A stretch of DNA of 41,934 nt from a virus (lineage: Duplodnaviria > Heunggongvirae > Uroviricota > Caudoviricetes). The position numbers were made by a program, and so were the translations under genes. This document shows positions 3,308-41,686 of the stretch, one piece after another. Location of the stretch: the IMG/VR virus record IMGVR_UViG_2541047821_000007. The stretch is one strand, 5' to 3'. Position 1 is the first letter of the stretch. Every line of letters begins with the position of its first letter. Below the pieces are notes generated by a model. The model was not told the DNA's origin, did not search any database, and saw only the letters and a program-made list of their open reading frames with translations.

Positions 3308-3883
3308 CTACGGCAGTGCTGGCCATTCAATATCCTGTGCAGTTGACGTATCAACACGGTTCAGCAATACCCGATACTTTTTCCATGCTTCCAGCAACGA
3401 GATTTCTTCCTCCGTTGCAATTTCCAGATCTGCAGCATCCTGAAGCGGCGCAATATGCTCACTGGCTACCTGCATCAGGTTGTTTTTTGTTTCTTCCGCC
3501 TCCCGGATCCGGAACAGTTTTTCTGCTTCCGTATCCTTCACCCAGGCTGTGCCGTTCCACTTCTGAAACTCCCCTTCCGGGGATAACCAGGTGACATTTT
3601 CCGGTAATGGGCCAAGTTCAGAAATAAATAACGCGTCGCCGGAAGCCACGTCATAGACGGTTTTACCCCGATGATCTTCAACGAGATGCCACGATGCCTC
3701 ATCACTGTTGAAAACAGCCACGAAGCCAGCCGGAATATCTGGCGGTGCAATATCGGTACTGTTTGCTGGCAGACCTGTATGAGGCGGAATATATGCGTCA
3801 CCTTCACCAATAAATTCATTAGTTCCTGCCAGCAGATTATAAATTTTTATGGTCCGTGGTTGTTCACTCATTCTGAATGCCAT
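3308..3883 (-). CDS. tfaQ: tail fibre assembly protein (Tfa)
   Basis: 191 aa, [26 protein letters not shown]...; start overlaps stf stop; conserved Tfa C-terminus. Confidence 0.85.
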
Positions 3884-27823: not shown

Positions 27824-28054
27824 TCAACTCAAGAGCCTTATTGCTGCTTCCAGAATTTCTTCTGAAGTAACATGTCGATCCGCGGCTACATAAATGACTT
27901 TATGATCTCCGGTCAGAGATGGAAACCCTGCGGCCATTACAGTAAGGTGTGTTTTTTCGCCATTTGGATATTCACGCATGATGGTGTTAACTCCAGTCAT
28001 CGCTGGCACTACCACTGCTGGTTCAGAGTTAAAAAAAACTATGATTTTTTTCAT
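27824..28054 (-). CDS. small prophage protein, possibly YnfN-like
   Basis: Track ORF trimmed to internal ATG 28054 (MKKIIVFFNSEPAVV...); between gnsB and cspI as in Qin. Confidence 0.45.
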   Translation of the reverse strand: MKKIIVFFNSEPAVVVPAMTGVNTIMREYPNGEKTHLTVMAAGFPSLTGDHKVIYVAADRHVTSEEILEAAIRLLS

Positions 28055-28325
28055 GATGTTACCGTAGTATGTGAGTATCCATCGAATAGATACCAAGCAA
28101 AAAAGCTCCCGAAGGAGCCTTCATTTTCACTTTTTTAAATCCAACGACAGACGGCTGGCATTTAAGTATTGTGAAATATTATCAAATGTAATCATCATTG
28201 ATTTACAAAAGATACATTTTGCCCCGAAAGGATTCATGTCAGAAACATCAAAAGATGATGTTCTATACTGGGAACCATGACAACACGGGCATCTAAAGTG
28301 AATATGGTTTGTAATATTGTCTACC

Positions 28326-28538
28326 TCAAAGCGCCACTACATGAACAGCGGCAGGACCTTTAGGTCCGTTCTCAATACCAAATTCAACTTCCTGATTCTC
28401 AGTTAATGTTTTGAAATCGTTGCTCTGAATTGCTGAGAAATGGACAAACACATCTTTGCTGCCATCTTTCGGCGTGATGAAACCAAAACCTTTTTCAGGG
28501 TTAAACCATTTCACTAAACCAGTCATTTTGTTAGACAT
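28326..28538 (-). CDS. cspI: cold-shock protein CspI
   Basis: 70 aa; KGFGFI and VFVHF RNA-binding motifs. Confidence 0.9.
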
Positions 28539-28901
28539 AATTATTACCTTTTGAAGAAATTAGCCCTTGGGCAGAATGGTCCGAAAAAAAATATCAGAGA
28601 GAAAAACCAACAAGGAAATCTCAAGAGGTACAAATAATAAAATTATAACAATGACTGCTTCAGATAAATTTGTAACAAACCAGAACACCATTAACGCATG
28701 ATTAACCACCCATAGCAAGGATTACTTTTGTAAAGAAAAACACAGCAATGAAAGAATAGCTTTATTTATTAATAATAACGTGTCATTCTGATTAAGACCT
28801 TTTATCTTACCCTTAAGATTTCAGGAATTTTGGCTCATGGAAGAGTCCTTTTTATTTAAATTTTACATTCCGCGATGTAAATGTTCCGATTTAATATTAC
28901 C

Positions 28902-29925
<1,024 letters not shown>

Positions 29926-29929
<4 letters not shown>

Positions 29930-30213
29930 ATATATTTATGATGAGGACGCTCGTGCTTATTGGCAGGATTTTCAATCTTAAAGGAGTACTGATGCTGCAG
30001 ATAAGACTCAACTTTTTCTGACAATTTTTCTGCTACTTCCAGGAAGACTTGCCGGACGCTCCTTCTGGCTGCTGCCTCATAAAACTCCAGCGCAGCTCCT
30101 TCAACACGGTCCATGGCGACATCCAGGTCAAAAATTTCACCGTCAAAGCGTTCTTTGTCCTGTAAGGCTACAGTTACCGTAACTTTATTCTCAAAATTAC
30201 GGACTCCTTTCAC
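29926..30213 (-). CDS. ydfR: YdfR-like protein between holin and endolysin
   Basis: 95 aa; ATGA overlap with endolysin start. Confidence 0.55.
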
Positions 30214-30241
30214 AACCAGTTCATAGTCTTGAGTCGTTGGA

Positions 30242-30457
30242 TTACTCTCCTCTCGCAGCCTTACGCCTGTCTTCTTTAATCTTGAAATAAAGATTTGTCA
30301 GATACGTCAGCAGGCCAAAAACCAGGCTACCCAGCACACCGATTGCAGCCCACTGTGACGGAGTTACTTTATCGAGTAACTGCAATGCCCAGAAACCAGC
30401 ATTACCCGCCGATGTGCCATAGGCAACACCTGTTGTTAACTTATCCATTGATTTCAT
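30242..30457 (-). CDS. essQ: pinholin (phage 21 S-like), dual-start motif
   Basis: 71 aa from MKSMDK (Met1 and Met4); two TM helices; C-terminal [11 protein letters not shown]. Confidence 0.85.
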
Positions 30458-30676
30458 ATCCTCACCCCGATGTACACGGATGGTGCAATATGTTTGAAAA
30501 GATCGGAGTCTACGGGGTAGTTTTGACAGCACACGTTGTTCTCAACGGCGCTAAAAAAACATACACATTAAAAATGTGGGTAATTATTTTGAAAGAAAGT
30601 CATATATAAAATAATAATACGAGAAATGTTTTCATATTTAGTGTACTGTATACGGCCATTTATACAGGAAAAGCCT

Positions 30677-30847
30677 ATGTCAGAACGTAAAAACTCAAAA
30701 TCACGCCGTAATTATCTCGTTAAATGTTCCTGCCCAAACTGCACCCAAGAGTCAGAACACAGTTTTTCAAGAGTACAAAAAGGTGCCCTTTTGATCTGCC
30801 CTCATTGCAACAAAGTATTCCAGACAAATCTTAAAGCTGTAGCCTGA
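30677..30847 (+). CDS. small zinc-ribbon protein (C4)
   Basis: 56 aa from ATG 30677 (GGAAAA SD); CSCPNC and CPHC pairs. Confidence 0.5.
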   Translation: MSERKNSKSRRNYLVKCSCPNCTQESEHSFSRVQKGALLICPHCNKVFQTNLKAVA

Positions 30848-30904
30848 TTGATTTTATTAGTAACAAGTATTTTTTATATTTTAATAATATATTTAAAGCA
30901 GATA

Positions 30905-30930
30905 ATAAAAAACCCGCCTGAGCGGGTTTG
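30905..30930 (-). terminator. intrinsic terminator, strongest on minus strand
   Basis: AAACCCGC-TCAG-GCGGGTTT followed by TTTTTTATT on the minus strand. Confidence 0.6.
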
Positions 30931-31210
30931 AGATTGTGGTGCTTTTTGTGGGAGTCATCCACTTACGCACTTTGTTTTGCCATGCCAGCAGTTAGCTTCT
31001 GCTGTAAAACTATTCATGCAGCAAACCTGCACTTCACCACAATGGTTAGCATACTTTTCCTGATTAAGATTTTGCCAAATATGCTAGCCATTGTTTCATG
31101 TATTGGACCTCCTTACTTTTTATTAAAGAGATCCAATATTCACTACTCTGTCCGTATCTCTACTCAGGCATCAGCCTTCTTCGTTATCGTATACAGACGA
31201 GCGATGAATT

Positions 31211-31426
31211 TTAATCAGTAATGATGACATTTGCTGCTGCAGGACCTTTAGCACCACTCTCTATAGAGAAGGTAACCTTTTGACCTTCAAATAAGGTTCG
31301 ATAATTATCATTCTGAATCGCAGAAAAATGCACAAACACATCTTTACTACCATCAACAGGAGAAATAAAGCCGAAACCTTTATCAGCGTTAAACCATTTT
31401 ACTAAACCAGTCATTTTATTTGACAT
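31211..31426 (-). CDS. cspB: cold-shock protein CspB
   Basis: 71 aa; [23 protein letters not shown]... Confidence 0.9.
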
Positions 31427-31726
31427 TCTACATTCCTTAACTTGAGCCTTTCGGCATAAATGGTTTGCATAACAGAAACGACTTCGTACTTAATTGGAGA
31501 GACTCAAAGAAGGAATAAGTGAATAACACCTGAAATGAGAACTGCTTTAGTAAACTACTTCGTATATCGTCTGTTCTTCAAACCGACGCAATCATTAACG
31601 CATAGTTGAACATATGAAGCAATGTTTATTTTAGACATCCAGCCATCTTCAACCCCATCAAAAAACTATAGCTTTCTTCAGGAACGTGTGTATAGTGCGC
31701 CAAGTTATCAGTATTAAGGAATTTTT

Positions 31727-31939
31727 TTGTCCCGTAAAATGACAGGAATTGTCAAAACCTTTGACGGCAAAAGCGGCAAGGGTCTTATCACCCCATCCGA
31801 TGGTCGTATCGATGTCCAGCTTCATGTTTCAGCGCTCAATCTCCGCGATGCAGAAGAAATTACCACCGGATTACGCGTGGAATTTTGCCGGATAAATGGT
31901 CTGCGTGGCCCTTCAGCTGCCAATGTTTACCTTTCATGA
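31727..31939 (+). CDS. cspF: cold-shock protein-like CspF
   Basis: 70 aa; [23 protein letters not shown]... Confidence 0.85.
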
Positions 31940-32227
31940 GCTATATTAAAGCTTTAATTTCAGGCCCCATCGGATCACACATGGAGAGTTTTTATGAATA
32001 ACCCCGTCTGTCTTGATGACTGGTTGATTGGCTTTAAAAGCTTATGCTGTACTTTGGCCGTAATAGCTCTGCTAATAATATAATAAGCAGACTCATTGTG
32101 TTTAGGGACATTGTACTGGAAGAAAATATTTTAAACATCAGGCAAATAACCAAGTCACCAGCTAAATAATAAGTTAACAGACATGAGTCCCGGGATGAGA
32201 TTCAACATTACCATTGCCCCATTTAAA

Positions 32228-32255
32228 GCACAAAACCCGCTCATCAGCGGGTTTT
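32228..32255 (-). terminator. tR'-like intrinsic terminator after the late promoter
   Basis: AAAACCCGCTGATGAGCGGGTTTT then GTGCTTT on the minus strand, about 40-60 nt after the predicted start site. Confidence 0.6.
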
Positions 32256-32300
32256 CTACTTTTTCTTAACGTCGGGTATACAAAGCCCATCGTTGAAAAA

Positions 32301-32329
32301 ATTTTATCCATATTTTTTGAAAAATGCAA
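32301..32329 (-). promoter_or_regulatory. pR'-like late promoter
   Basis: Minus-strand -35 TTGCAT (32329..32324), 17-nt spacer, -10 TAAAAT (32306..32301), immediately after the Q stop. Confidence 0.6.
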
Positions 32330-32360
32330 ACATCATGTCGCCATCTTCAGCAAAAATCAT

Positions 32361-33113
32361 TTATCTCGTCACCTTCCTCAATTGCGCTTCCGCGTATGCT
32401 TCTTCCTGCCAGCACTTTGTTACCAGTTTATCAATGACGTCCGCATACCCCTTATACCACTGATAATCGGTCAGGTCTGGTACCAGCTTCTGGACATGAC
32501 GTCGTGCCAGCGTGGTCGGTAAACGACTAAATCGGTTTCCATTACAACGCCCACAAATCTTATATACCGGTACGCCATGAAACCGGGTTCTTTTTTCATC
32601 CAGAACAATCCCTTTACCCTTACACCCTCTGCACGCTGTGCTGACTTCGCCCTTACCATGGCAATGCTGACATAGTTCCTTCACCCATTCTTCCTTGATT
32701 ACAGATTCCCCGCGTCTGTAGTGTTTCACCACTTCGCGCAATACATTATAAAATCCCGTACCTGAACAATGCTCACAGCGAGCCTTACTTGCCGCAGACC
32801 TGGAGTAATCAGCAAAGGCAAAATTCACAAGGTAAGGAATAATCTGTAACCGGATTTCTTCACTCAATTTGTTCAATGTCGGGTTATCCAGTGCCATCGC
32901 GTAATTTAGCAGGCCTTCAATCGCAAACTGAGGGTCCTGAACACCAACTTTTGCCAGAAATAAGGCCAACCCAAGTGGTGCTTTCGACTGCACCATCCCC
33001 TGCGCTGCCATTACATCCGTAATTGTTAAACAACCGGTGCCTGTCGCTGGAGCGTCATCGCTCAATTTTGGAGATTTTGGGGAGTAATATTTTGGTAAGG
33101 CTTCAAGGTTCAT
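32361..33113 (-). CDS. quuQ: late-gene antiterminator Q (phage 21/82 type)
   Basis: 250 aa; Cys/His clusters (CEHCSGTG, CQHCHGKGE, CRGCKGKG, CGRCNG). Confidence 0.8.
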   Translation of the reverse strand: MNLEALPKYYSPKSPKLSDDAPATGTGCLTITDVMAAQGMVQSKAPLGLALFLAKVGVQDPQFAIEGLLNYAMALDNPTLNKLSEEIRLQIIPYLVNFAFADYSRSAASKARCEHCSGTGFYNVLREVVKHYRRGESVIKEEWVKELCQHCHGKGEVSTACRGCKGKGIVLDEKRTRFHGVPVYKICGRCNGNRFSRLPTTLARRHVQKLVPDLTDYQWYKGYADVIDKLVTKCWQEEAYAEAQLRKVTR

Positions 33114-33126
33114 GCTCGTTCTCCAC

Positions 33127-34215
33127 TTACGCCAGTACGCCAGTTGCCAGCGCGCGATCGATAAAACGAAATATCAGCTCCAGTTGGGAGCCATACTTCT
33201 CTTCAAATGCCACTGTATCCGTATGCAGCTCGTTGTGATGCTTTCTGCACAAAGGCAACACAAAGAGATCATGTGCTTTTGTTCCCATTCCGCCCTGCCC
33301 GTGACCAATCAGATGATGCGGATCGTCGGCTGGCATACCGCAGCAAGCACACGGCTGTGTCTTAACCCAACGAGTGTATTTCTCCTTAACCCAGCGGCGA
33401 CGTTTAGGCAGCTTCATGAAAGATTCCGGAGACTCTGGATCAACGGTGATGCTTACCACCGTCTTTTCCTGTGGTGGTTTTTGTTGCTGGTGGGCGTAAG
33501 GCAACGGTGCAAGATTTTCTGTGCGTTGTTTCAATATGCTGGTGGCGGTCTGCTCTCCCTGTACGATGTCGCTTTCGCGGTACACCGAGCAGATTTTTTC
33601 CGCTGGTAATCCCAGCGAACGACGCGATACAGCCTCAGGTAGTGCATCCACCACCTGATTGCAGACCGCCCACCAGGATAATTCAGCCAAAGATAATTCC
33701 CGCTCCTGCGTACCGCTTATTGCGTGACGGATGACGTCAATCACCCATGCTGTCAGATTTTGTTGAGCAAGCAGCTCCAGTGATTCCGATGTCTGGTCAC
33801 GCAGTTGGTTGTCGCAGTGCCAGCACAACACCATTGCGCCGGTACCATAACGGTGAATGACTGTTTCAGTGTGATGGTAATCGCCATTAGGCCACTGGCA
33901 GGATGTAACATGACGTAATAGCCAGTCAGACAATGCGCCAACGCCGCCAGTAGCACGAATCACCCGTTCGTTACTAAAAAACGGCAGCAATGTTTTGTCT
34001 TCTGCCAGCGGCTGGCGAACGGCAGGAACGACTCCGGATGGCAGATTTCGCATGCTTTTTGGTTCCGGTTCCACCAGCACTCGAGGATTATGAAATATCT
34101 GTATGGATTCACGGCCCGGCTTAAGGACCACCAGCCCAAGCTCAGGCACCAGAACAGGTCTAAGTAATACCCGCACGTTACCTCCAGATCCGTTGCTGGA
34201 AAGTGCGGGACGCAC
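33127..34215 (-). CDS. ydfU: DUF968-type prophage protein YdfU with C-terminal HNH-like Cys/His motif
   Basis: 362-aa ORF; C-terminus PCACCG...HHLIGHGQGG...CRKHHNELH; real start may be an internal Met. Confidence 0.65.
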   Translation of the reverse strand: MRPALSSNGSGGNVRVLLRPVLVPELGLVVLKPGRESIQIFHNPRVLVEPEPKSMRNLPSGVVPAVRQPLAEDKTLLPFFSNERVIRATGGVGALSDWLLRHVTSCQWPNGDYHHTETVIHRYGTGAMVLCWHCDNQLRDQTSESLELLAQQNLTAWVIDVIRHAISGTQERELSLAELSWWAVCNQVVDALPEAVSRRSLGLPAEKICSVYRESDIVQGEQTATSILKQRTENLAPLPYAHQQQKPPQEKTVVSITVDPESPESFMKLPKRRRWVKEKYTRWVKTQPCACCGMPADDPHHLIGHGQGGMGTKAHDLFVLPLCRKHHNELHTDTVAFEEKYGSQLELIFRFIDRALATGVLA

Positions 34216-34456
34216 GTGGTGGGCGTTCGGAATAAGGCAGCCTGACAGAGATTATCCAGTGCCGATAGTCGAGACTGAGAGCTTTCTTAACCTCGAACCC
34301 GCGCCTGCGGTAAGAATGAATCAGCCATTCGGCCTGTTCTGCAGTGCATGGAGGGTGCTGGAACCATTCAGACTTGAATGCGTGAGAATACCGCCCGTGC
34401 GTGCAGGCAAGAACGGGCGAATTATCAGAATTGTAATATTTTACGTTGCGTGCCAT
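34178..34456 (-). CDS. rem: Rem-like small prophage protein
   Basis: 92-aa ORF between ydfU and the hok region; 3' end overlaps the ydfU 5' extension. Confidence 0.5.
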   Translation of the reverse strand: MARNVKYYNSDNSPVLACTHGRYSHAFKSEWFQHPPCTAEQAEWLIHSYRRRGFEVKKALSLDYRHWIISVRLPYSERPPRASRTFQQRIWR

Positions 34457-34522
34457 CGGTTTTCTCCGGTGGCACGGTGTTACTCAGCGGGAGTTCAGCC
34501 CCGCGCAAGATTGTAGATGAGT

Positions 34523-34774
34523 TTATTCTTCTGCAAAAGCAGAAAAGCCAGCTTTTATTCCGATCTCTTTCAATGCCTGTAATGAAGTGACAAACTCACC
34601 TTCGCGCAAGATAAATCCGTCCGTCACTCGGGCATCCACAAAATTAATTAACGCAGCCCCATTCTTTCGCAAACACATAATGCGGTAATGACTAACAAGA
34701 TTTCCATTTTCAACGCACACAGCATAGAGGCCATCTTCACAAAAAATTTTACGCAGTTCTTCGATGTTCATCAT
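34523..34774 (-). CDS. hypothetical 83-aa protein
   Basis: Double ATG with AAGGA 5 nt upstream; no recognised motif. Confidence 0.45.
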   Translation of the reverse strand: MMNIEELRKIFCEDGLYAVCVENGNLVSHYRIMCLRKNGAALINFVDARVTDGFILREGEFVTSLQALKEIGIKAGFSAFAEE

Positions 34775-34890
34775 CAGAATCCTTCCGGATAATTAGCTCT
34801 CCCCTTTAAGGGACCATCCCTCTTATCCCTGCGCGCTACTTAAGTATTTTTGATTCTATTCCGGCACCGTCCAGATCTTCAAACGCGTTG

Positions 34891-34922
34891 AAAATAAAAA
34901 CAAAAACCCGCCGAAGCGGGTT
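34891..34922 (-). terminator. intrinsic terminator downstream of hok
   Basis: AACCCGC-TTCG-GCGGGTT followed by TTTTGTTTTTATTTT on the minus strand. Confidence 0.65.
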
Positions 34923-34961
34923 AAGTGCGGGTGCGTTGAGGATGCCTGCCACATCAGAGGT

Positions 34962-34983
34962 GGCGAGGGATTTCTCCCTCGCC
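34962..34983 (-). promoter_or_regulatory. perfect palindrome stem-loop just after the hok stop
   Basis: GGCGAGGGA-TTTC-TCCCTCGCC. Confidence 0.5.
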
Positions 34984-34990
34984 GGGTCTC

Positions 34991-35146
34991 TTACTCCTCA
35001 GGTTCGTAAGCTGTGAAGACAGCGACCTCCGTCTGGCCGGTTCGGATTCGTACCTCGCAGAGGTCTTTCCTCGTTACCAGTGCCGTCACTATGACGGTTA
35101 AACAGATGACGATCAGGGCGATTAACATCGCCTTTTGCTGCTTCAT
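34991..35146 (-). CDS. hokD: Hok-family type I toxin
   Basis: 51 aa: MKQQKAMLIALIVICLTVIVTALVTRKDLCEVRIRTGQTEVAVFTAYEPEE; GGAG 9 nt upstream. Confidence 0.85.
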   Translation of the reverse strand: MKQQKAMLIALIVICLTVIVTALVTRKDLCEVRIRTGQTEVAVFTAYEPEE

Positions 35147-35361
35147 AGCCTGCTTCTCCTTGCCTTTCGGCTCGTAAGAGGCTAACCTACATGTGTCTAG
35201 CATGAAATTGGCCTCAGATTAATGTTAAGCGTCTTGCAGGACGCGTAATGTTAACTGGGGCTTTTCTCTATCTGCCTTTGGTGTTCATGCCCGAGGCAGA
35301 TAGCCTCAAGCACCCGCAGCCATTCTACTTAACTACCGTTACCTCGCCAATATGAAATCAG

Positions 35362-35565: not shown

Positions 35566-35879
35566 CCACTAGTCACCACCAGCACTTCTTTTAATACGCA
35601 AAGTCCGACACAAGCTAACCTTCTAGTCCGCTTTGAGCGAAAAACAGCCATAATTTAGTGCCACGTATATAATGATAGAGCTATTCAAGCTAGCAATTCA
35701 CATGTAAAAATTCAGAGGGTAGAAGCACATAGTTATAAATGTTGGCTCCATCGACAAATTGCGGTCTCAAGTACATTTATTAATGTTGCCCCCGCATTAA
35801 CAAATCATCAAGGTGACGACATGGGGTGATGCTGCCAACTTACTGATTTAGTGTATGATGGTGTTTTTGAGGTGCTCCA

Positions 35880-36155
35880 GTGGCTTCTGTTTCTATCAGC
35901 TGTCCCTCCTGTTCAGCTACTGACGGGGTGGTGCGTAACGGCAAAAGCACCGCCGGACATCAGCGCTATCTCTGCTCTCACTGCCGTAAAACATGGCAAC
36001 TGCAGTTCACTTACACCGCTTCTCAACCCGGTACGCACCAGAAAATCATTGATATGGCCATGAATGGCGTTGGATGCCGGGCAACCGCCCGCATTATGGG
36101 CGTTGGCCTCAACACGATTTTCCGCCATTTAAAAAACTCAGGCCGCAGTCGGTAA
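35880..36155 (+). CDS. insA: IS1 InsA
   Basis: 91 aa, [46 protein letters not shown]... Confidence 0.95.
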
Positions 36156-36577
36156 CCTCGCGCATACAGCCGGGCAGTGACGTCATCGTCTGCGCGGAAA
36201 TGGACGAACAGTGGGGATACGTCGGGGCTAAATCGCGCCAGCGCTGGCTGTTTTACGCGTATGACAGGCTCCGGAAGACGGTTGTTGCGCACGTATTCGG
36301 TGAACGCACTATGGCGACGCTGGGGCGTCTTATGAGCCTGCTGTCACCCTTTGACGTGGTGATATGGATGACGGATGGCTGGCCGCTGTATGAATCCCGC
36401 CTGAAGGGAAAGCTGCACGTAATCAGCAAGCGATATACGCAGCGAATTGAGCGGCATAACCTGAATCTGAGGCAGCACCTGGCACGGCTGGGACGGAAGT
36501 CGCTGTCGTTCTCAAAATCGGTGGAGCTGCATGACAAAGTCATCGGGCATTATCTGAACATAAAACACTATCAATAA
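36074..36577 (+). CDS. insB: IS1 InsB (made as InsAB' by -1 frameshift at the A6C motif)
   Basis: 167-aa ORF overlapping insA; slippery TTAAAAAACTC at ~36124-36135. Confidence 0.9.
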
Positions 36578-36596
36578 GTTGGAGTCATTACCCGAC

Positions 36597-38384
36597 ATGG
36601 ACGATATTAATATCAGCCTCGACGAACTTAACACTATTGATTTATCCCCCTTAATCCAGAGTAAGCTGCCAGTTACCTGCTTTGATATCACAAAGTATCT
36701 TTCTAGCCTAGGTGATGGAAGAGCGGAGATAAGACTGCTAACCCATATTTGCGGTTTTCACTTTCGTCCCGAAAATCCACAGGTACCATTTGGTCCGTGC
36801 TTTCAAAGCAGCCAAGGTAGATCTGCAATTCCGGATGACATTAACGGGTTGTCGCTGGAGGTACTTTCTCAATTTTGCCCGACGATAGAGCTACCCGAAC
36901 TTCAAGCTCGTATTGCTGATACACTTTGGGTTCGTAAAATTGGTGGAATCCGTTTTCCTTTGCTGGCAGTCCGTGCTTATTATGCGTCCAGTATAGCTAT
37001 TATGACATCGCAAGGGACGTGGGTTAGTGCTTTAGAACGCCTAGAGCGTGCGCTTAGGCTGTGTTGTTTTTTTCGAAAGAATACTGATTTCAGGGATGAA
37101 TTTGATCAGCTTTCGGCACATCTACTAGCAGAGTATGAACGTACCAGAGAACAAGGCGATTCACCTTATCCGCTGCGACTCCTGCAACTCGATATCGACT
37201 GTAAAGTGAGTGAGCCATCTTTTATTGCCCAGGAACTCCTGTTTCTGACAAAAAACTATCTGGCTCAAAAATTATTTTCATTTGCCGTCGATGCCTGTAA
37301 AACCGCAATCACGATTGCGAATAGGTGCTGTGACAGAGATACACAGTTTGAATTCTGGCGGCTTCTTGCCGATACACATCTGGAAGAGTCAAAATTCCAA
37401 GATGGCGGTATGATTTCGGCAGCCTGCATGCAGAATGCTATTGAAGCACTGGCTAATATTCCAGGAACCCGAATAGAACGTCTTGCGCTGTATGAAGAAA
37501 TGCGTGATTACCAAATCGAATCCCGTCACCAGATGTCTATCCTTCAGTCTCCCCCTCAAGATATTAGTGAGATTGTCCATCAAGCCAAGAGTCGGGTAGT
37601 CGGAAGAGATATGTTTGATATGGTTTTCAGACTTGCGATGCTGGTCTGTCGGCCAACCAGCATTGAGAGACTTAAGGCTCAAGCAATAGAACAAAAGGCC
37701 AACAGCATAGCTTGGATGTTTGGATCAACACATATTGATCATGAGGGAATGACACTTGCTCGCATACCCGCAGGATTGGGGATTGATGATGCAAATGGGG
37801 CAGTTATTTGGCCCATAATGATGACGAGAATGCGTATCGACCATGAGTTGGCAGTAGCTGGGCAAATTATTCCTGCTACAGATGAGATCACAATGAAATA
37901 TCCAATCTCGGAGGCGTTTTTTCGCGATATGTTCATCAATCATCCCTTCATCCCGTTTGGGCATGAAGAGTTTTTCATCAAGGGTATGGTTTGCGGTTTC
38001 AATGGAGATTTTATGACGGCATGCCACGTGTTGATTCCCCAGATCGAAAATAGTCTGAGATATGTGGCTAAAATTAAAGGTGAGGAACCATCGCAGCTTC
38101 ACGGGGACGGTTCGCAAGAGCGAAATGGACTCAAGGGATTACTAGATAATCCACTGATTATTGAAGCTTTCGGCGTAGACATAATTGGCAATCTTCAGGC
38201 CTTACTGGTAGATAAAATCTATGGTGATTTACGAAATCAACTAGCTCACGGATATGTGCCTGCCGGTTACTACAATCAACCTCCCTGCATTTTTGCATGG
38301 TGGCTTGTATTGCACATTCTAATGAACCCTACGGCGAGATACTGGCAAGCCACTTATGGCCAAGAGAGTGAGGCTCAGACTTAA
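36597..38384 (+). CDS. 595-aa protein of unknown function with C-terminal HEPN-like R-x4-H motif; candidate abortive-infection/defence protein
   Basis: ATG 36597 lies inside the IS1 target duplication (track start is a TTG inside IS1); LRNQLAHG at 38232-38249; mostly helical composition, no Walker A; opposite strand to the early operon. Confidence 0.6.
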   Translation: MDDINISLDELNTIDLSPLIQSKLPVTCFDITKYLSSLGDGRAEIRLLTHICGFHFRPENPQVPFGPCFQSSQGRSAIPDDINGLSLEVLSQFCPTIELPELQARIADTLWVRKIGGIRFPLLAVRAYYASSIAIMTSQGTWVSALERLERALRLCCFFRKNTDFRDEFDQLSAHLLAEYERTREQGDSPYPLRLLQLDIDCKVSEPSFIAQELLFLTKNYLAQKLFSFAVDACKTAITIANRCCDRDTQFEFWRLLADTHLEESKFQDGGMISAACMQNAIEALANIPGTRIERLALYEEMRDYQIESRHQMSILQSPPQDISEIVHQAKSRVVGRDMFDMVFRLAMLVCRPTSIERLKAQAIEQKANSIAWMFGSTHIDHEGMTLARIPAGLGIDDANGAVIWPIMMTRMRIDHELAVAGQIIPATDEITMKYPISEAFFRDMFINHPFIPFGHEEFFIKGMVCGFNGDFMTACHVLIPQIENSLRYVAKIKGEEPSQLHGDGSQERNGLKGLLDNPLIIEAFGVDIIGNLQALLVDKIYGDLRNQLAHGYVPAGYYNQPPCIFAWWLVLHILMNPTARYWQATYGQESEAQT

Positions 38385-38602
38385 AGTGAATAAGTTTACG
38401 AAGTTGGCACTTCCGGATGCATGTCCATATGAGTTGAGGCGATTTGGTTAATAAGGTTGAGTGCTGCTGAAATTATTCGATGTCCGCTTTTGGCACAAAG
38501 CGGACAACCACGCCAGATCTACCCTGTGCCATGAAAAATGAGAATGTCAATTCACTCCTGAACTAATGCTTTTTAATCTAGTAACGTCTAAAATACCTAA
38601 CA

Positions 38603-39004
38603 TTATCCCTGATAAAATGCCAGTATGCGCTGCATAACTTCACTCATCCGGCACTCGCGACAGATTATGTTTAGGCGACTGTCGTAGCGACGTATTTCTC
38701 CATCAGGTAACGACCAGATAAGGTCCGGATCAACCACAGCTGTTTTCTTCACCTTTGCCCTCGAGAGTTTTTTGCGGGCGTTTTGCCAGTCCTTACGCGC
38801 CTGTTCAGACGGGAATAACCCGTAGCCGGAGTTGTATACATCGCCACTGGCTACCAGCTCTCTGGCAAGAACGCTCATCAGATATCTAGTCGCACCTGTT
38901 TTAGCTTCCAGTTGCCGTAACGTCTCACGACCGCTCTGGCGCACGAGTTCCACCACCTGCCCTTTAATTTTTTCCCGCTCTTCTTGTGTAAAAACTTTTG
39001 CCAC
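38603..39004 (-). CDS. hypothetical 133-aa protein downstream of the replication initiator
   Basis: Track ORF; basic central region; convergent with the 595-aa gene. Confidence 0.45.
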   Translation of the reverse strand: MAKVFTQEEREKIKGQVVELVRQSGRETLRQLEAKTGATRYLMSVLARELVASGDVYNSGYGLFPSEQARKDWQNARKKLSRAKVKKTAVVDPDLIWSLPDGEIRRYDSRLNIICRECRMSEVMQRILAFYQG

Positions 39005-39044
39005 AAGTCCCCCTTAAAATTACCTCATGACCTGAAATCAAAAC

Positions 39045-40010
39045 TTATCCTCTGAAACCAGGCGGAATTTCTGTATCCGGTTCAGAAATATGATTAACAC
39101 AACGCTGTACAGGTGAACGCCCCAGGCGGATGACCAGTTCGTCCCATTTTTCGCGGAGCTTTGACGGGCTCATGATGTTTTTTACCCAGAATGGATCCCG
39201 CTGTACCCGACCAAACATTTCACAAATTTGTCTGTGGCTTCTGCCATCCAGCATCCGCATTGTGCGCACATCATTGGCCCAGACAGTCCAGTTAGGCTCT
39301 TTTGGTCGCATGATCTCGCCATCATCACTGGCGGCCTGTTCGTAGAGACCCACGATCCGCCCCCATATCCACTGCGCACACGCCAGATCCTCCTGGCTAC
39401 CCCACTGGCGTTTTTTCGCACTAAACACAACTGCGCCAGGGTGCCGGATTAAAAAATCCTGTTCAGCCGTCTGCGGGTCCGGTTGCGAAGCTTCCGGACG
39501 AAAAGTGTTTTTATTCTCTGTAGTAATCTCTGTTGTATTCTCTGTAGGATCATCGGGCCATTTTGACCCGATGACATTGGGTCGTTTTGAACCAATGGAG
39601 CGTTTCATTTTGACCTCTTCCATCGTGTCATTTTGACCTGATGGAGCGGCGCATTTTGAACCGATGGATTCGCTCAATTTGCCATCATCTAAAAGCTCGC
39701 TTCCATAGTTAATCGTGTAGAAATTGGTCATATCGCGCTTTGATTTATTGAGCTTTTCACAACGCAAAAGCCCCAGCGTTTTCAGACTTGCAAACGCGCG
39801 CTTTAACGTTGACTCTGACCAGAATGGGAACTGTTCCAGCCATTGTTCCGTTGTGTTGTAAATCCAGCGAACACCATCACATTCCATGCCGGAATTGGTA
39901 TCTCTCAACCAGTAATGCAACTGCTGCAACACAATGGCTTCATTTAAGCCAATCTTCATCGCAAGCTGTGTGTTTATAACCAGTGGGCGTTCAGCAAAAA
40001 GAAGGCTCAT
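39045..40010 (-). CDS. replication initiator, phage O/DnaD-like, with internal origin iterons
   Basis: N-terminus MSLLFAERPLVINTQLAMKIGLNEAIVLQQLHYW typical of phage replication proteins; iterons inside the coding region; track start 40064 is TTG, ATG at 40010. Confidence 0.7.
   Translation of the reverse strand: MSLLFAERPLVINTQLAMKIGLNEAIVLQQLHYWLRDTNSGMECDGVRWIYNTTEQWLEQFPFWSESTLKRAFASLKTLGLLRCEKLNKSKRDMTNFYTINYGSELLDDGKLSESIGSKCAAPSGQNDTMEEVKMKRSIGSKRPNVIGSKWPDDPTENTTEITTENKNTFRPEASQPDPQTAEQDFLIRHPGAVVFSAKKRQWGSQEDLACAQWIWGRIVGLYEQAASDDGEIMRPKEPNWTVWANDVRTMRMLDGRSHRQICEMFGRVQRDPFWVKNIMSPSKLREKWDELVIRLGRSPVQRCVNHISEPDTEIPPGFRG
39559..39672. repeat. five iterons, consensus CATTTTGA(A/C)C(C/T)GATGG, 22-24 bp period (candidate ori)
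   Basis: Copies at 39560, 39584, 39608, 39630, 39653; encode repeated (S)IGSK in the protein; three TCTCTGT(A/T)G repeats at ~39514-39546. Confidence 0.7.
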
Positions 40011-40512
40011 AATTCCATCCAGCTTTTTGTTGGTATTGCTGTCGATACGCAAGTTTGAAAGCAATTGCTTTTTCTATAAGTTCGTCAGTTTCACGATCCA
40101 CTACGGCAGGATCAGCAAAAAGCAGTCCGGACTCCACCACATCGCCATATTCTTTGTTTAACCCGGCGATCATGTACGTGATGCTTTTTCCGTCACTAAT
40201 TTCACGATACAACCTGAAATCATTAATCCGGATAGCCTCCATAATTGCAGGCACTAGCGCCGTGAACTTTTCACGCTTATCCCTGGTGTCGATAGCCTTC
40301 CAGCGTTCGAATATCTTCACTCGATTAACGCCAAGCGCTCGCTGATCAACCGCGCCACCTTCATCTGTGACACGCTGAACATCGATGTTCGGGCGCTCTT
40401 TCAAAGCCCAGAATGCTTCAGTGATTAATATCGTCGCCTGCTCCTGTGTCATTCCTGGTCGACATATCCAGGCATCCAGAGCCTCACGAGCCTGTTCAGG
40501 AGTGATTTTCAT
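39991..40512 (-). CDS. YdaT-like early protein
   Basis: 173 aa; KIFERW...ALVPAI pattern resembles Rac YdaT; follows the Cro-like gene. Confidence 0.5.
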   Translation of the reverse strand: MKITPEQAREALDAWICRPGMTQEQATILITEAFWALKERPNIDVQRVTDEGGAVDQRALGVNRVKIFERWKAIDTRDKREKFTALVPAIMEAIRINDFRLYREISDGKSITYMIAGLNKEYGDVVESGLLFADPAVVDRETDELIEKAIAFKLAYRQQYQQKAGWNYEPSFC

Positions 40513-40723
40513 TGTTCAACCGCCCCGCCCGCTTCGTCTTACGATATTCGTCATAAACCTTGGGATCATACAGAAGCTCGCCGCCAGATGCCTCCTGTAG
40601 ACGCATCGCGCGACCTTCAGGAACCAGCTCTTGCCATTGAGAAACAGCAGATGGGTCAACGCCAGCAGCTTTCGCTACTTTGGCTTTCGTACCGTAAAAA
40701 TTAATTACGTCTGATTTAAACAT
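40496..40723 (-). CDS. dicC: DicC/YdaS-like Cro-type regulator
   Basis: ~75 aa from ATG 40723 (GGAGGTG SD); divergent from the repressor. Confidence 0.7.
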   Translation of the reverse strand: MFKSDVINFYGTKAKVAKAAGVDPSAVSQWQELVPEGRAMRLQEASGGELLYDPKVYDEYRKTKRAGRLNNENHS

Positions 40724-40735
40724 CGCACCTCCAGT

Positions 40736-40751
40736 ATTGAGTTTTCTCAAT
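40736..40751. promoter_or_regulatory. operator-like inverted repeat in the dicC-dicA intergenic region
   Basis: ATTGAG-TTTT-CTCAAT; the 11-mer AGTTTTCTCA(T) recurs at 41273-41285 and inverted at 41309-41319. Confidence 0.5.
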
Positions 40752-40800
40752 GCTAATCACTCAAGGAATCTCAAGTCAAGGGTTATTAAGATATCTAAAT

Positions 40801-41208
40801 ATGAACGAGAAAACTTTAGGTCAACGCATTAGAGAAAGACGTAAGCAGGTAGGTTTAAGTCAAAACGGTTTAAGCAAAGCTGCTGGCGTATCTGGCTCAT
40901 CAATTTCATTATGGGAAAGTGACCATACAGCCCCGCGCGGGCAAAATTTGCATCGCCTCGCCGAGGTATTGCAATGTTCACCAACCTGGATACTGTTTGG
41001 CGACGAGGACAAAACACCAGCTCCCCCTGTTTCACTCGATAGTGCCTTAGACTTATCGGAAGATGAGTTAGAGATGCTGCGTTTGTATCGCGCACTTCCT
41101 AAATCAGAGCAACAAGCACAACTCAGCGAACTCCGCGCCCGCGTTGAGAATTTTAATCGCCTGTTCACCGAGCTATTAGAGGCTCGCAAACGCAACAAGC
41201 ATCAATAA
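40801..41208 (+). CDS. dicA: DicA-like XRE-family repressor
   Basis: 135 aa from ATG 40801; HTH LSQNGLSKAAGVSGSSISLWE; VLQCSPTWILFGDEDK motif. Confidence 0.8.
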   Translation: MNEKTLGQRIRERRKQVGLSQNGLSKAAGVSGSSISLWESDHTAPRGQNLHRLAEVLQCSPTWILFGDEDKTPAPPVSLDSALDLSEDELEMLRLYRALPKSEQQAQLSELRARVENFNRLFTELLEARKRNKHQ

Positions 41209-41272
41209 TCATCCCTTCACAAAATTTTAAAGCCTTACATTTCAATGTATTGGCTTTATCTTGCGCCAATAC

Positions 41273-41324
41273 TTGAGTTTTCTCATCAAAAAGCCTTGAC
41301 GAAAAATAATGAGAAAACTAAATT
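41273..41324 (+). promoter_or_regulatory. candidate promoter with flanking operator half-sites for the ydfA-ydfB-ydfC operon
   Basis: TTGAGTTTTCTCA (41273-41285), -35 TTGACG (41296-41301), 17-nt spacer holding inverted copy ATGAGAAAACT (41309-41319), -10 TAAATT (41319-41324). Confidence 0.5.
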
Positions 41325-41400
41325 ACCTCCATCAACACACCGCACGGTGTTCTCAGCAAACAGTTCCGCTACCCCGGCGTTAAGGGGAAATGAGGTCAGC

Positions 41401-41556
41401 ATGGATACTATCGATCTTGGCAACAACGAATCTCTGGTGTACGGCGTGTTTCCAAACCAGGACGGCACGTTCACCGCAATGACGTATACCAAAAGCAAAA
41501 CGTTTAAAACCGAAAATGGTGCCCGTCGCTGGCTGGAAAGAAACTCAGGTGAGTGA
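41401..41556 (+). CDS. ydfA: YdfA-like small protein (51 aa)
   Basis: ATG 41401 with GAGGT SD. Confidence 0.6.
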   Translation: MDTIDLGNNESLVYGVFPNQDGTFTAMTYTKSKTFKTENGARRWLERNSGE

Positions 41557-41557
41557 T

Positions 41558-41686
41558 ATGGATTTCGACACAATCATGAAAAAGGCTTACGAAGAATACT
41601 TCGAAGGCCTTACCGAAGGCGAAGAAGCTCTCAGCTTCAGTGAGTTTAAACAGGCGCTTTCCAGCTCGGCAAAATCTAACGGCTGA
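41558..41686 (+). CDS. ydfB: YdfB-like small protein (42 aa)
   Basis: ATG 1 nt after the ydfA stop; not in track (<60 aa). Confidence 0.5.
   Translation: MDFDTIMKKAYEEYFEGLTEGEEALSFSEFKQALSSSAKSNG

Follow-up and report, generated by a model that had tools for sequence, protein, structure and literature searches.

A compact lambda-type Q/pR'/tR' late cassette predicted downstream of the Q gene in a Qin-type lambdoid prophage

The stretch of viral DNA analyzed here (41,934 nt, called the window below) carries, just downstream of its Q gene, an element that is very probably the pR'/Q-loading site/tR' late cassette of a Qin/SfV-type lambdoid prophage. The cassette is a compact, previously uncharacterized example of the textbook lambda-type Q/pR'/tR' switch. 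An earlier note on this DNA, made from the letters alone, had already placed a pR'-tR' late promoter unit after Q. That claim is now supported by the family to which the Q protein belongs, by a pause element identical to that of lambda and by the conservation of the cassette among relatives. It is further supported by the lysis and structural genes that lie downstream on the same strand, and by a 3' end that was mapped by Term-seq right after the hairpin. Compact is a fair description, since the predicted terminated RNA measures 67 nt, versus 194 nt as counted on the lambda sequence and 258 nt in the Stx1 and Stx2a phages (PMC7547250). The features of the cassette and of the late region are listed here in the order in which the minus strand is read.

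33113 to 32361, minus strand: Q gene of the quuQ/ydfT type, 250 aa (Pfam PF03589, BLASTP, PDB match, RefSeq annotation)
32337 to 32332, minus strand: CATGAT motif directly upstream of the -35, at least 90% conserved among 30 unique relatives and shared with lambda at the equivalent position
32329 to 32324, minus strand: -35 element TTGCAT, from the sequence (4/6 versus lambda pR' TTGACT; TTGCA kept in relatives)
32323 to 32307, minus strand: 17-nt spacer TTTTCAAAAAATATGGA, candidate Q-binding element (11/17 versus the lambda pR' spacer)
32306 to 32301, minus strand: -10 element TAAAAT (5/6 versus consensus, 5/6 versus lambda TAAATT; TA[AG][AG]AT in relatives)
32294 to 32286, minus strand: putative pause element AACGAT (+1 to +6) with GGG discriminator (+7 to +9), 9/9 versus lambda pR' +1 to +9
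32294 to 32268, minus strand: possible 5' stem-loop of the RNA (AACG/CGUU plus UGGG/CCCG), from the MFE fold and RNAalifold
32255 to 32232, minus strand: putative tR' hairpin AAAACCCGCU-GAUG-AGCGGGUUUU, core stem CCCGC/GCGGG at 32251-32236 (scan, fold, relatives)
32231 to 32228, minus strand: RNA 3' end ...UUUUGUGC (Term-seq); a predicted RNA from 32294 to 32228 would be 67 nt long
30929 to 30910, minus strand: second terminator-like hairpin, palindromic, upstream of the holin gene (terminator scan)
30532 to 1, minus strand: late operon assigned to pR' (ORFs and annotation of the 118UI prophage)
30532 to 30242, minus strand: holin essQ, late operon
29929 to 29396, minus strand: lysozyme, late operon
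29399 to 28902, minus strand: Rz, late operon

The logic of the cassette is taken to be that of lambda (PMC9388147, PMC5001585), and the steps from pausing onward are borrowed from lambda (PMC9388147). In the lysogen, sigma70-RNA polymerase would start at A32294. Sigma region 2 would then re-bind AACGAT and GGG (+1 to +9), and the polymerase would pause after scrunching, at about +13 to +17. If Q is missing, the polymerase would escape, terminate at the hairpin 32255-32232 (+67) and release a 67-nt RNA ending at C32228. Upon prophage induction, Q would be made from the gene directly upstream, bind to both the spacer of the promoter and the paused complex, and become a stable subunit. It would subsequently travel with the polymerase and suppress tR', the second hairpin (30929-30910) and later terminators. 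This read-through would lead to the transcription of the minus-strand genes for lysis and morphogenesis, which span about 30 kb. Both the pausing of the polymerase at AACGAT/GGG and the Q-dependent read-through of tR' are expected here by analogy with lambda.

Setting in a Qin-type prophage

Positions 28001-35160 of the window share 99.55% identity with Qin, a cryptic prophage of E. coli K-12 MG1655. Strain 118UI carries a full-length lambdoid prophage of the Qin type, which matches window 12150-35824 and 36593-41658 with 99.94-99.96% identity. An IS1 insertion (window 35825-36592, with the InsA/InsB ORFs at 35880-36577) adjoins a DUF4209 gene and is the sole difference from the 118UI prophage there. 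The cassette sits on the minus strand between the Q gene (33113-32361) and two convergent genes of the plus strand, ynfS and cspF. Further downstream, the minus strand carries in order cspB, the holin gene essQ, ydfR, the lysozyme gene and Rz, followed by the terminase, portal, capsid and tail genes. According to the ORFs and the annotation, the lysis and morphogenesis genes are all located downstream of the cassette and on its strand.

The second hairpin (30910-30929), which lies in the moron region, may terminate transcripts in both directions. In K-12, Term-seq lists a plus-strand 3' end (1641060) at this hairpin, downstream of ynfU, and the annotations of the phages SfV and Ayreon place a terminator directly ahead of the holin gene. 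Four Rfam matches above threshold were found elsewhere in the window, all on the minus strand (31195-31587, 28299-28684, 35141-35315 and 3342-3540). These are the cspA-type thermoregulator leaders on cspB and cspI, the sok antitoxin RNA of hokD, and IS009. A 51-aa ORF (32329-32174) was rejected as coding, as its start lies inside the -35 and it has no Pfam match. Its frame and length, judged by eye, are not kept in relatives either.

Promoter, pause element and Q protein

The elements named in the earlier note (TTGCAT, a 17-nt spacer, TAAAAT and a GC hairpin) were all found in place when the minus strand was read directly. The label near-consensus, however, overstates the promoter, as TTGCAT matches TTGACA at three of six positions. 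In a hexamer scan the site scored 9/12 and was read as TTTGCA-18-TAAAAT. The hexamers alone are not above chance, because 13 sites scoring like pR' occur in 5 kb, versus 8.2 +/- 2.7 expected. This score and the weak -35 both speak against a pR' cassette. The composite pattern TTG-N20-TANNNT-N6-AACGAT, which adds the pause element to the hexamers, occurs once in the 41.9-kb window, at the cassette, with 0.01 occurrences expected.

On the minus strand, the -10 and AACGATGGGCTTTGTATACCCGACGTTAAGAAAAAGTAGAAAACCCGCTGATGAGCGGGTTTTGTGCTTT are separated by TTTTTC. In an ungapped alignment anchored on the -35, the sequence AACGATGGG, 6 nt past the -10, matches +1 to +9 of lambda pR' in both sequence and spacing. 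The AACGAT plus GGG element has a single occurrence in the window. A qut-like site between the -10 and the hairpin, which the earlier note had left to be searched for, is thus present as the lambda-identical AACGATGGG at +1 to +9. In lambda, AACGAT is a -10-like sequence that is re-bound by sigma70, with GGG at +7-9 as its discriminator, and the pause element causes the +16/+17 pause where Q loads (PMC5001585; PMC9388147). The lambda Q-binding element (QBE) lies in the pR' spacer (PMC9388147).

By homology with lambda, the transcription start is predicted to be the A at 32294 (K-12 1642422, minus strand). The promoter activity of pR' and the role of the spacer as a Q-binding site are likewise predicted from the sequence. 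Spacer positions TTCAAAAAA and TGG are kept in at least 90% of the relatives with a 250-252-aa Q, and the spacer differs in loci whose Qs are 40% identical. That the spacer changes alongside the most diverged Qs is what a Q-binding site within it would lead one to expect. The upstream CATGAT and the aligned pR' elements are common to lambda and the Qin-type cassette, which makes the two promoters look homologous and not merely analogous.

In the supplementary data of Ettwiller 2016, Yan 2018 and Sun 2021, no 5' end was found at K-12 ~1642422 on the minus strand. This would fit a different explanation, in which the hexamers are inactive, the hairpin mainly stops upstream transcripts that run through Q (the early rightward operon), and the Term-seq 3' end is that of the Q mRNA. 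Such a role would also agree with the poor -35, with Term-seq reporting 3' ends only, and with the terminator scan, in which the hairpin is the first terminator past the Q stop codon. However, a lambda-identical pause element at the exact lambda distance from the -10 can be understood only if initiation occurs at that site, and promoter and pause element are kept across Qs of 40-100% identity. Furthermore, the curated table contains the 3' end although the cryptic prophage is repressed, which would be a better fit to a constitutive pR'. It is highly improbable that ending the Q mRNA is the main task of the hairpin. Some of the Term-seq signal could nevertheless belong to transcripts entering through Q, and this counts against the pR' cassette.

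The Q protein itself matches Pfam PF03589 (E 7.7e-55). It shares 34% identity with lambda Q (BLASTP, E 2e-41) and matches the solved Q-lambda structures 7ubm and 7ubj (PDB 7ubm, E 5.7e-37), while the RefSeq annotation of the gene is ydfT, antitermination protein. The Q stop codon is located 32 nt ahead of the -35. Relative to lambda Q, the protein contains an insertion of ~48 aa (residues ~121-168) and four CxxC(xGxG) motifs (residues 113, 148, 161 and 187) versus two, and the CxxC region gives a sub-hit to Pfam DnaJ_CXXCXGXG. The insertion falls within the zinc-ribbon 'arm' (lambda residues 114-152). The four-CxxC insertion is kept in all 250-273-aa relatives except for the single-motif exceptions L024 and L081. 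Judged from these matches, the protein is a lambda-Q family member with an enlarged zinc-binding arm. In lambda, the arm contacts QBE positions 11-13 and the repositioned sigma region 4 (PMC9388147).

A second departure from lambda is found next to the pause element. The -35-like TTGACT that lies there in lambda is replaced by TTTTTT (3/6) in the Qin-type cassette, and this segment is T/C-rich and variable in relatives. According to the work of Nickels and Hochschild, the lambda TTGACT reportedly has a role with the repositioned sigma region 4, and this role is also covered in PMC9388147. Both its absence and the enlarged Q arm are points against a strictly lambda-like cassette. Because of these two differences, the geometry of Q loading may differ from that in lambda.

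Terminator and terminated RNA

The inverted repeat AAAACCCGCT/AGCGGGTTTT at 32255-32232 pairs without mismatch across 10 bp, has a loop of 4 nt and is followed by TTTTGTGCTTT. The GC hairpin described in the earlier note is in place, but the minus-strand U-run after the stem counts just 4 (UUUUGUGCUUU, then GUGCUUU), and the terminator scan calls the hairpin (32255-32232) on the plus strand only. This U-run is the shortest of the family and is characteristic of the Qin lineage, which again weighs against the pR' cassette. Because 2H10 and all other relatives have U-runs of 5-7, tR' may be weaker in the Qin-lineage prophage.

An in vivo observation comes from the Term-seq study of Adams et al. 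2021 on MG1655. The curated 3'-end table (Supplementary file 1, PMC7815308) covers LB at OD 0.4, LB at OD 2.0 and M63 glucose. It lists the minus-strand 3' end 1642356 three times, in the class 'orphan', with the flanking sequence ...GCGGGTTTTGTGC before and TTTAAATGGG after the end. With the offset of +1610128 from window to K-12 coordinates, fixed by those of ydfT, this end corresponds to window 32228, and the K-12 sequence is identical to the window across the cassette region. The lower boundary that the earlier note had given to the unit (32228) therefore coincides with an in vivo 3' end in K-12. The cassette, in turn, would explain this K-12 'orphan' as the tR' end of the late promoter of the Qin prophage. 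A further minus-strand 3' end (K-12 1642188, window 32060) appears once in the curated table. It lies 168 nt past tR', antisense to ynfS and beside a CTGCT/AGCAG hairpin. This end could reflect leakage past tR', which would count against the cassette, or a separate (antisense) RNA.

The earlier note had added that the hairpin may also terminate plus-strand transcripts. From the sequence this is plausible, as the scan calls AAAACCCGCTCATCAGCGGGTTTT followed by CTACTTTTTC terminator-like on the plus strand, but the Term-seq tables contain no plus-strand 3' end between K-12 1642000 and 1642699. Wherever cspF is convergent (11 unique variants), an A-rich AAAAGTAGAAAA directly precedes the stem, and the hairpin of the common L010/L026 type lies within ~50 nt of the cspF end. 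On the other hand, phages without cspF (SfV, sal3, Kosakonia) have a hairpin at the same place, and some cspF-less phages likewise have an A-rich linker (7-8 A of 12). A Rho-dependent plus-strand region antisense to ydfT is located further on, at 1643015. It could stem from plus-strand transcripts that pass the hairpin or from an internal promoter. A bidirectional terminator that primarily or additionally ends the convergent cspF-ynfS transcript is a possible but rather doubtful explanation. Plus-strand termination as the sole function of the hairpin is excluded. As an added function, bidirectional termination is possible but unsupported.

The predicted 67-nt RNA folds with -26.2 kcal/mol (z = -5.55), forming a stem-loop at its 5' end and an extended hairpin at the terminator. 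The 5' stem AACG/CGUU is present in 20 of 25 variants, with AACGA/UCGUU as its counterpart in lambda. Among the variants, however, the stem-loop displays one-sided changes only (transitions opposite an invariant G/U) and no compensatory changes, and 21% of shuffles fold as well.

A constitutive RNA of this kind could also be an unannotated regulatory RNA comparable to StxS or IsrK, for which such a role has been shown, acting in trans on host or prophage transcripts or on the read-through transcript. Both precedents are short RNAs that arise from constitutive termination shortly after a Q gene, StxS from the pR'-tR' of Stx1/Stx2a phage (PMC7547250) and IsrK downstream of antQ in Gifsy-1 (PMC4825925). 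The 3' end recorded in K-12 by Term-seq, the stable two-hairpin fold and an A-rich, ARN-like linker would agree with such a function. The linker is, however, the least conserved part among relatives, so that a conserved seed is lacking, and the alignment of relatives displays no conserved single-stranded segment outside the pause region. The 3' end UUUUGUGC also comes without a long terminal U-tail. The Qin-type RNA resembles neither StxS nor IsrK in sequence or by covariance model. A regulatory RNA is an improbable reading of the cassette; if true, possible targets would be the mRNA of the convergent cspF-ynfS genes or the late RNA made by read-through.

No Rfam family was matched at threshold by the cassette RNA, either in the window or in 19 related loci. 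The sub-threshold resemblances (attenuator leaders, isrK and OrzO) are terminator-driven, and membership of isrK (RF01394) was rejected at 16.6 bits versus a cut-off of 50. The anti-sRNAs AgvB and AsxR were rejected as relatives, as they map elsewhere, at the moron site further downstream. In the literature on quuQ, ydfT and ynfS, no description of the cassette or its RNA was found, and the sequence matched only unrelated primers.

Conservation and comparison with known systems

Of 5426 complete E. coli genomes, 2436 contain a match to the 161-nt cassette region, as do 35 phage records, including SfV, Ayreon, mEp460, 2H10, a Salmonella phage and 15 Stx2c-converting phages. A search with the Q protein added loci with a Q identity of 71% down to 40%, from Entomohabitans, E. 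albertii and the six genera Kosakonia, Mangrovibacter, Phytobacter, Atlantibacter, Scandinavium and Buttiauxella. The resulting 105 loci were reduced to 37 unique variants, from E. coli, Shigella, Salmonella phages, Kosakonia, Mangrovibacter, Phytobacter, Atlantibacter, Scandinavium, Buttiauxella and E. albertii. In these 37 distinct relatives (Q identity down to 40%), the -35, the spacer core TTCAAAAAA..TGG, the -10 and AA[C/T]GAT[G/A]GG are kept. The pause element is near-invariant among 29 relatives that were aligned, with variation confined to +3 (C or T) and +7 (G or A).

Two loci deserve separate mention. In L020 (E. coli SCPM-O-B-8794), the pause element is altered to AAAGATGGG (AAAGAT) and the Q match starts at residue 76. 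Its Q may be truncated, and this copy of the cassette looks as if it is decaying. L012 (JAGZPX010000007.1) is labeled as a Veillonella parvula MAG and carries an E. coli prophage region with a Q of 99% identity; the label is probably due to a binning contaminant.

The terminator is conserved in a different manner. A hairpin followed by a U-run of 4-7 that starts at +48 to +68 was scored in 34 of the 37 unique relatives. From the remaining three, L017 and L095 have a clear hairpin by eye, which the fixed-length test missed, and the hairpin of L091 is weak. The stems differ among relatives (CCCGC/GCGGG, CCTCGC/GCGGGG, GACCTCGC/GCGGGGTC, GCCTCGC/GCGGGGC and AACCGC/GCGGTT). A structure and position that are kept while the stem sequence varies are as expected for a terminator. 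The hairpins were scored sequence by sequence instead of by RNAalifold on the MAFFT alignment, which missed the terminator because the CCCGC-type and CCTCGC-type stems were misaligned.

Compared to lambda pR'-qut-tR' (6S RNA), the order of Q gene, promoter, pause element, terminator and late genes is the same. The homologous Q (34%), the identical AACGATGGG at +1 to +9, the spacer (11/17), the -10 (5/6) and the upstream CATGAT are further shared. The Qin-type cassette differs in its shorter RNA, in its weaker -35, in the missing -35-like element and in a Q with the ~48-aa insertion and four CxxC motifs. Close systems are also found in SfV, Ayreon, mEp460, 2H10 and the Stx2c-converting phages, which contain a Q of the same 250-aa subfamily and a cassette of 79-100% identity. 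These phages differ from the Qin type in their U-run (5-7) and in the moron genes that follow. SfV, Ayreon, mEp460 and the Stx2c phages also lack a convergent cspF, with 2H10 as the exception. In SfV and Ayreon the homologous hairpin has been annotated as a putative rho-independent terminator, whereas a promoter or pause element is annotated in none of the records of these phages.

The cassette overturns nothing in the current understanding and is neither surprising nor new in kind. Its value lies in the predicted promoter, pause-site and terminator coordinates, which are now given for a biochemically unstudied Q subfamily. The combination of a lambda-identical pause element and a four-CxxC Q arm, without the lambda-type -35-like element, also offers a natural comparison for loading of the Q-lambda type. 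In the 15 Stx2c-converting phage genomes, the cassette follows Q with an identical pause element and ~82% identity. In these phages it would presumably gate the expression of toxin and late genes.

As in Stx phages, tRNA genes follow the cassette in L006 (4883-5112, Stx2c phages) and in the diverged prophages L023 (2467-2717) and L024 (2450-2523). Copies of the STnc100 sRNA are found downstream in L017 and L023.
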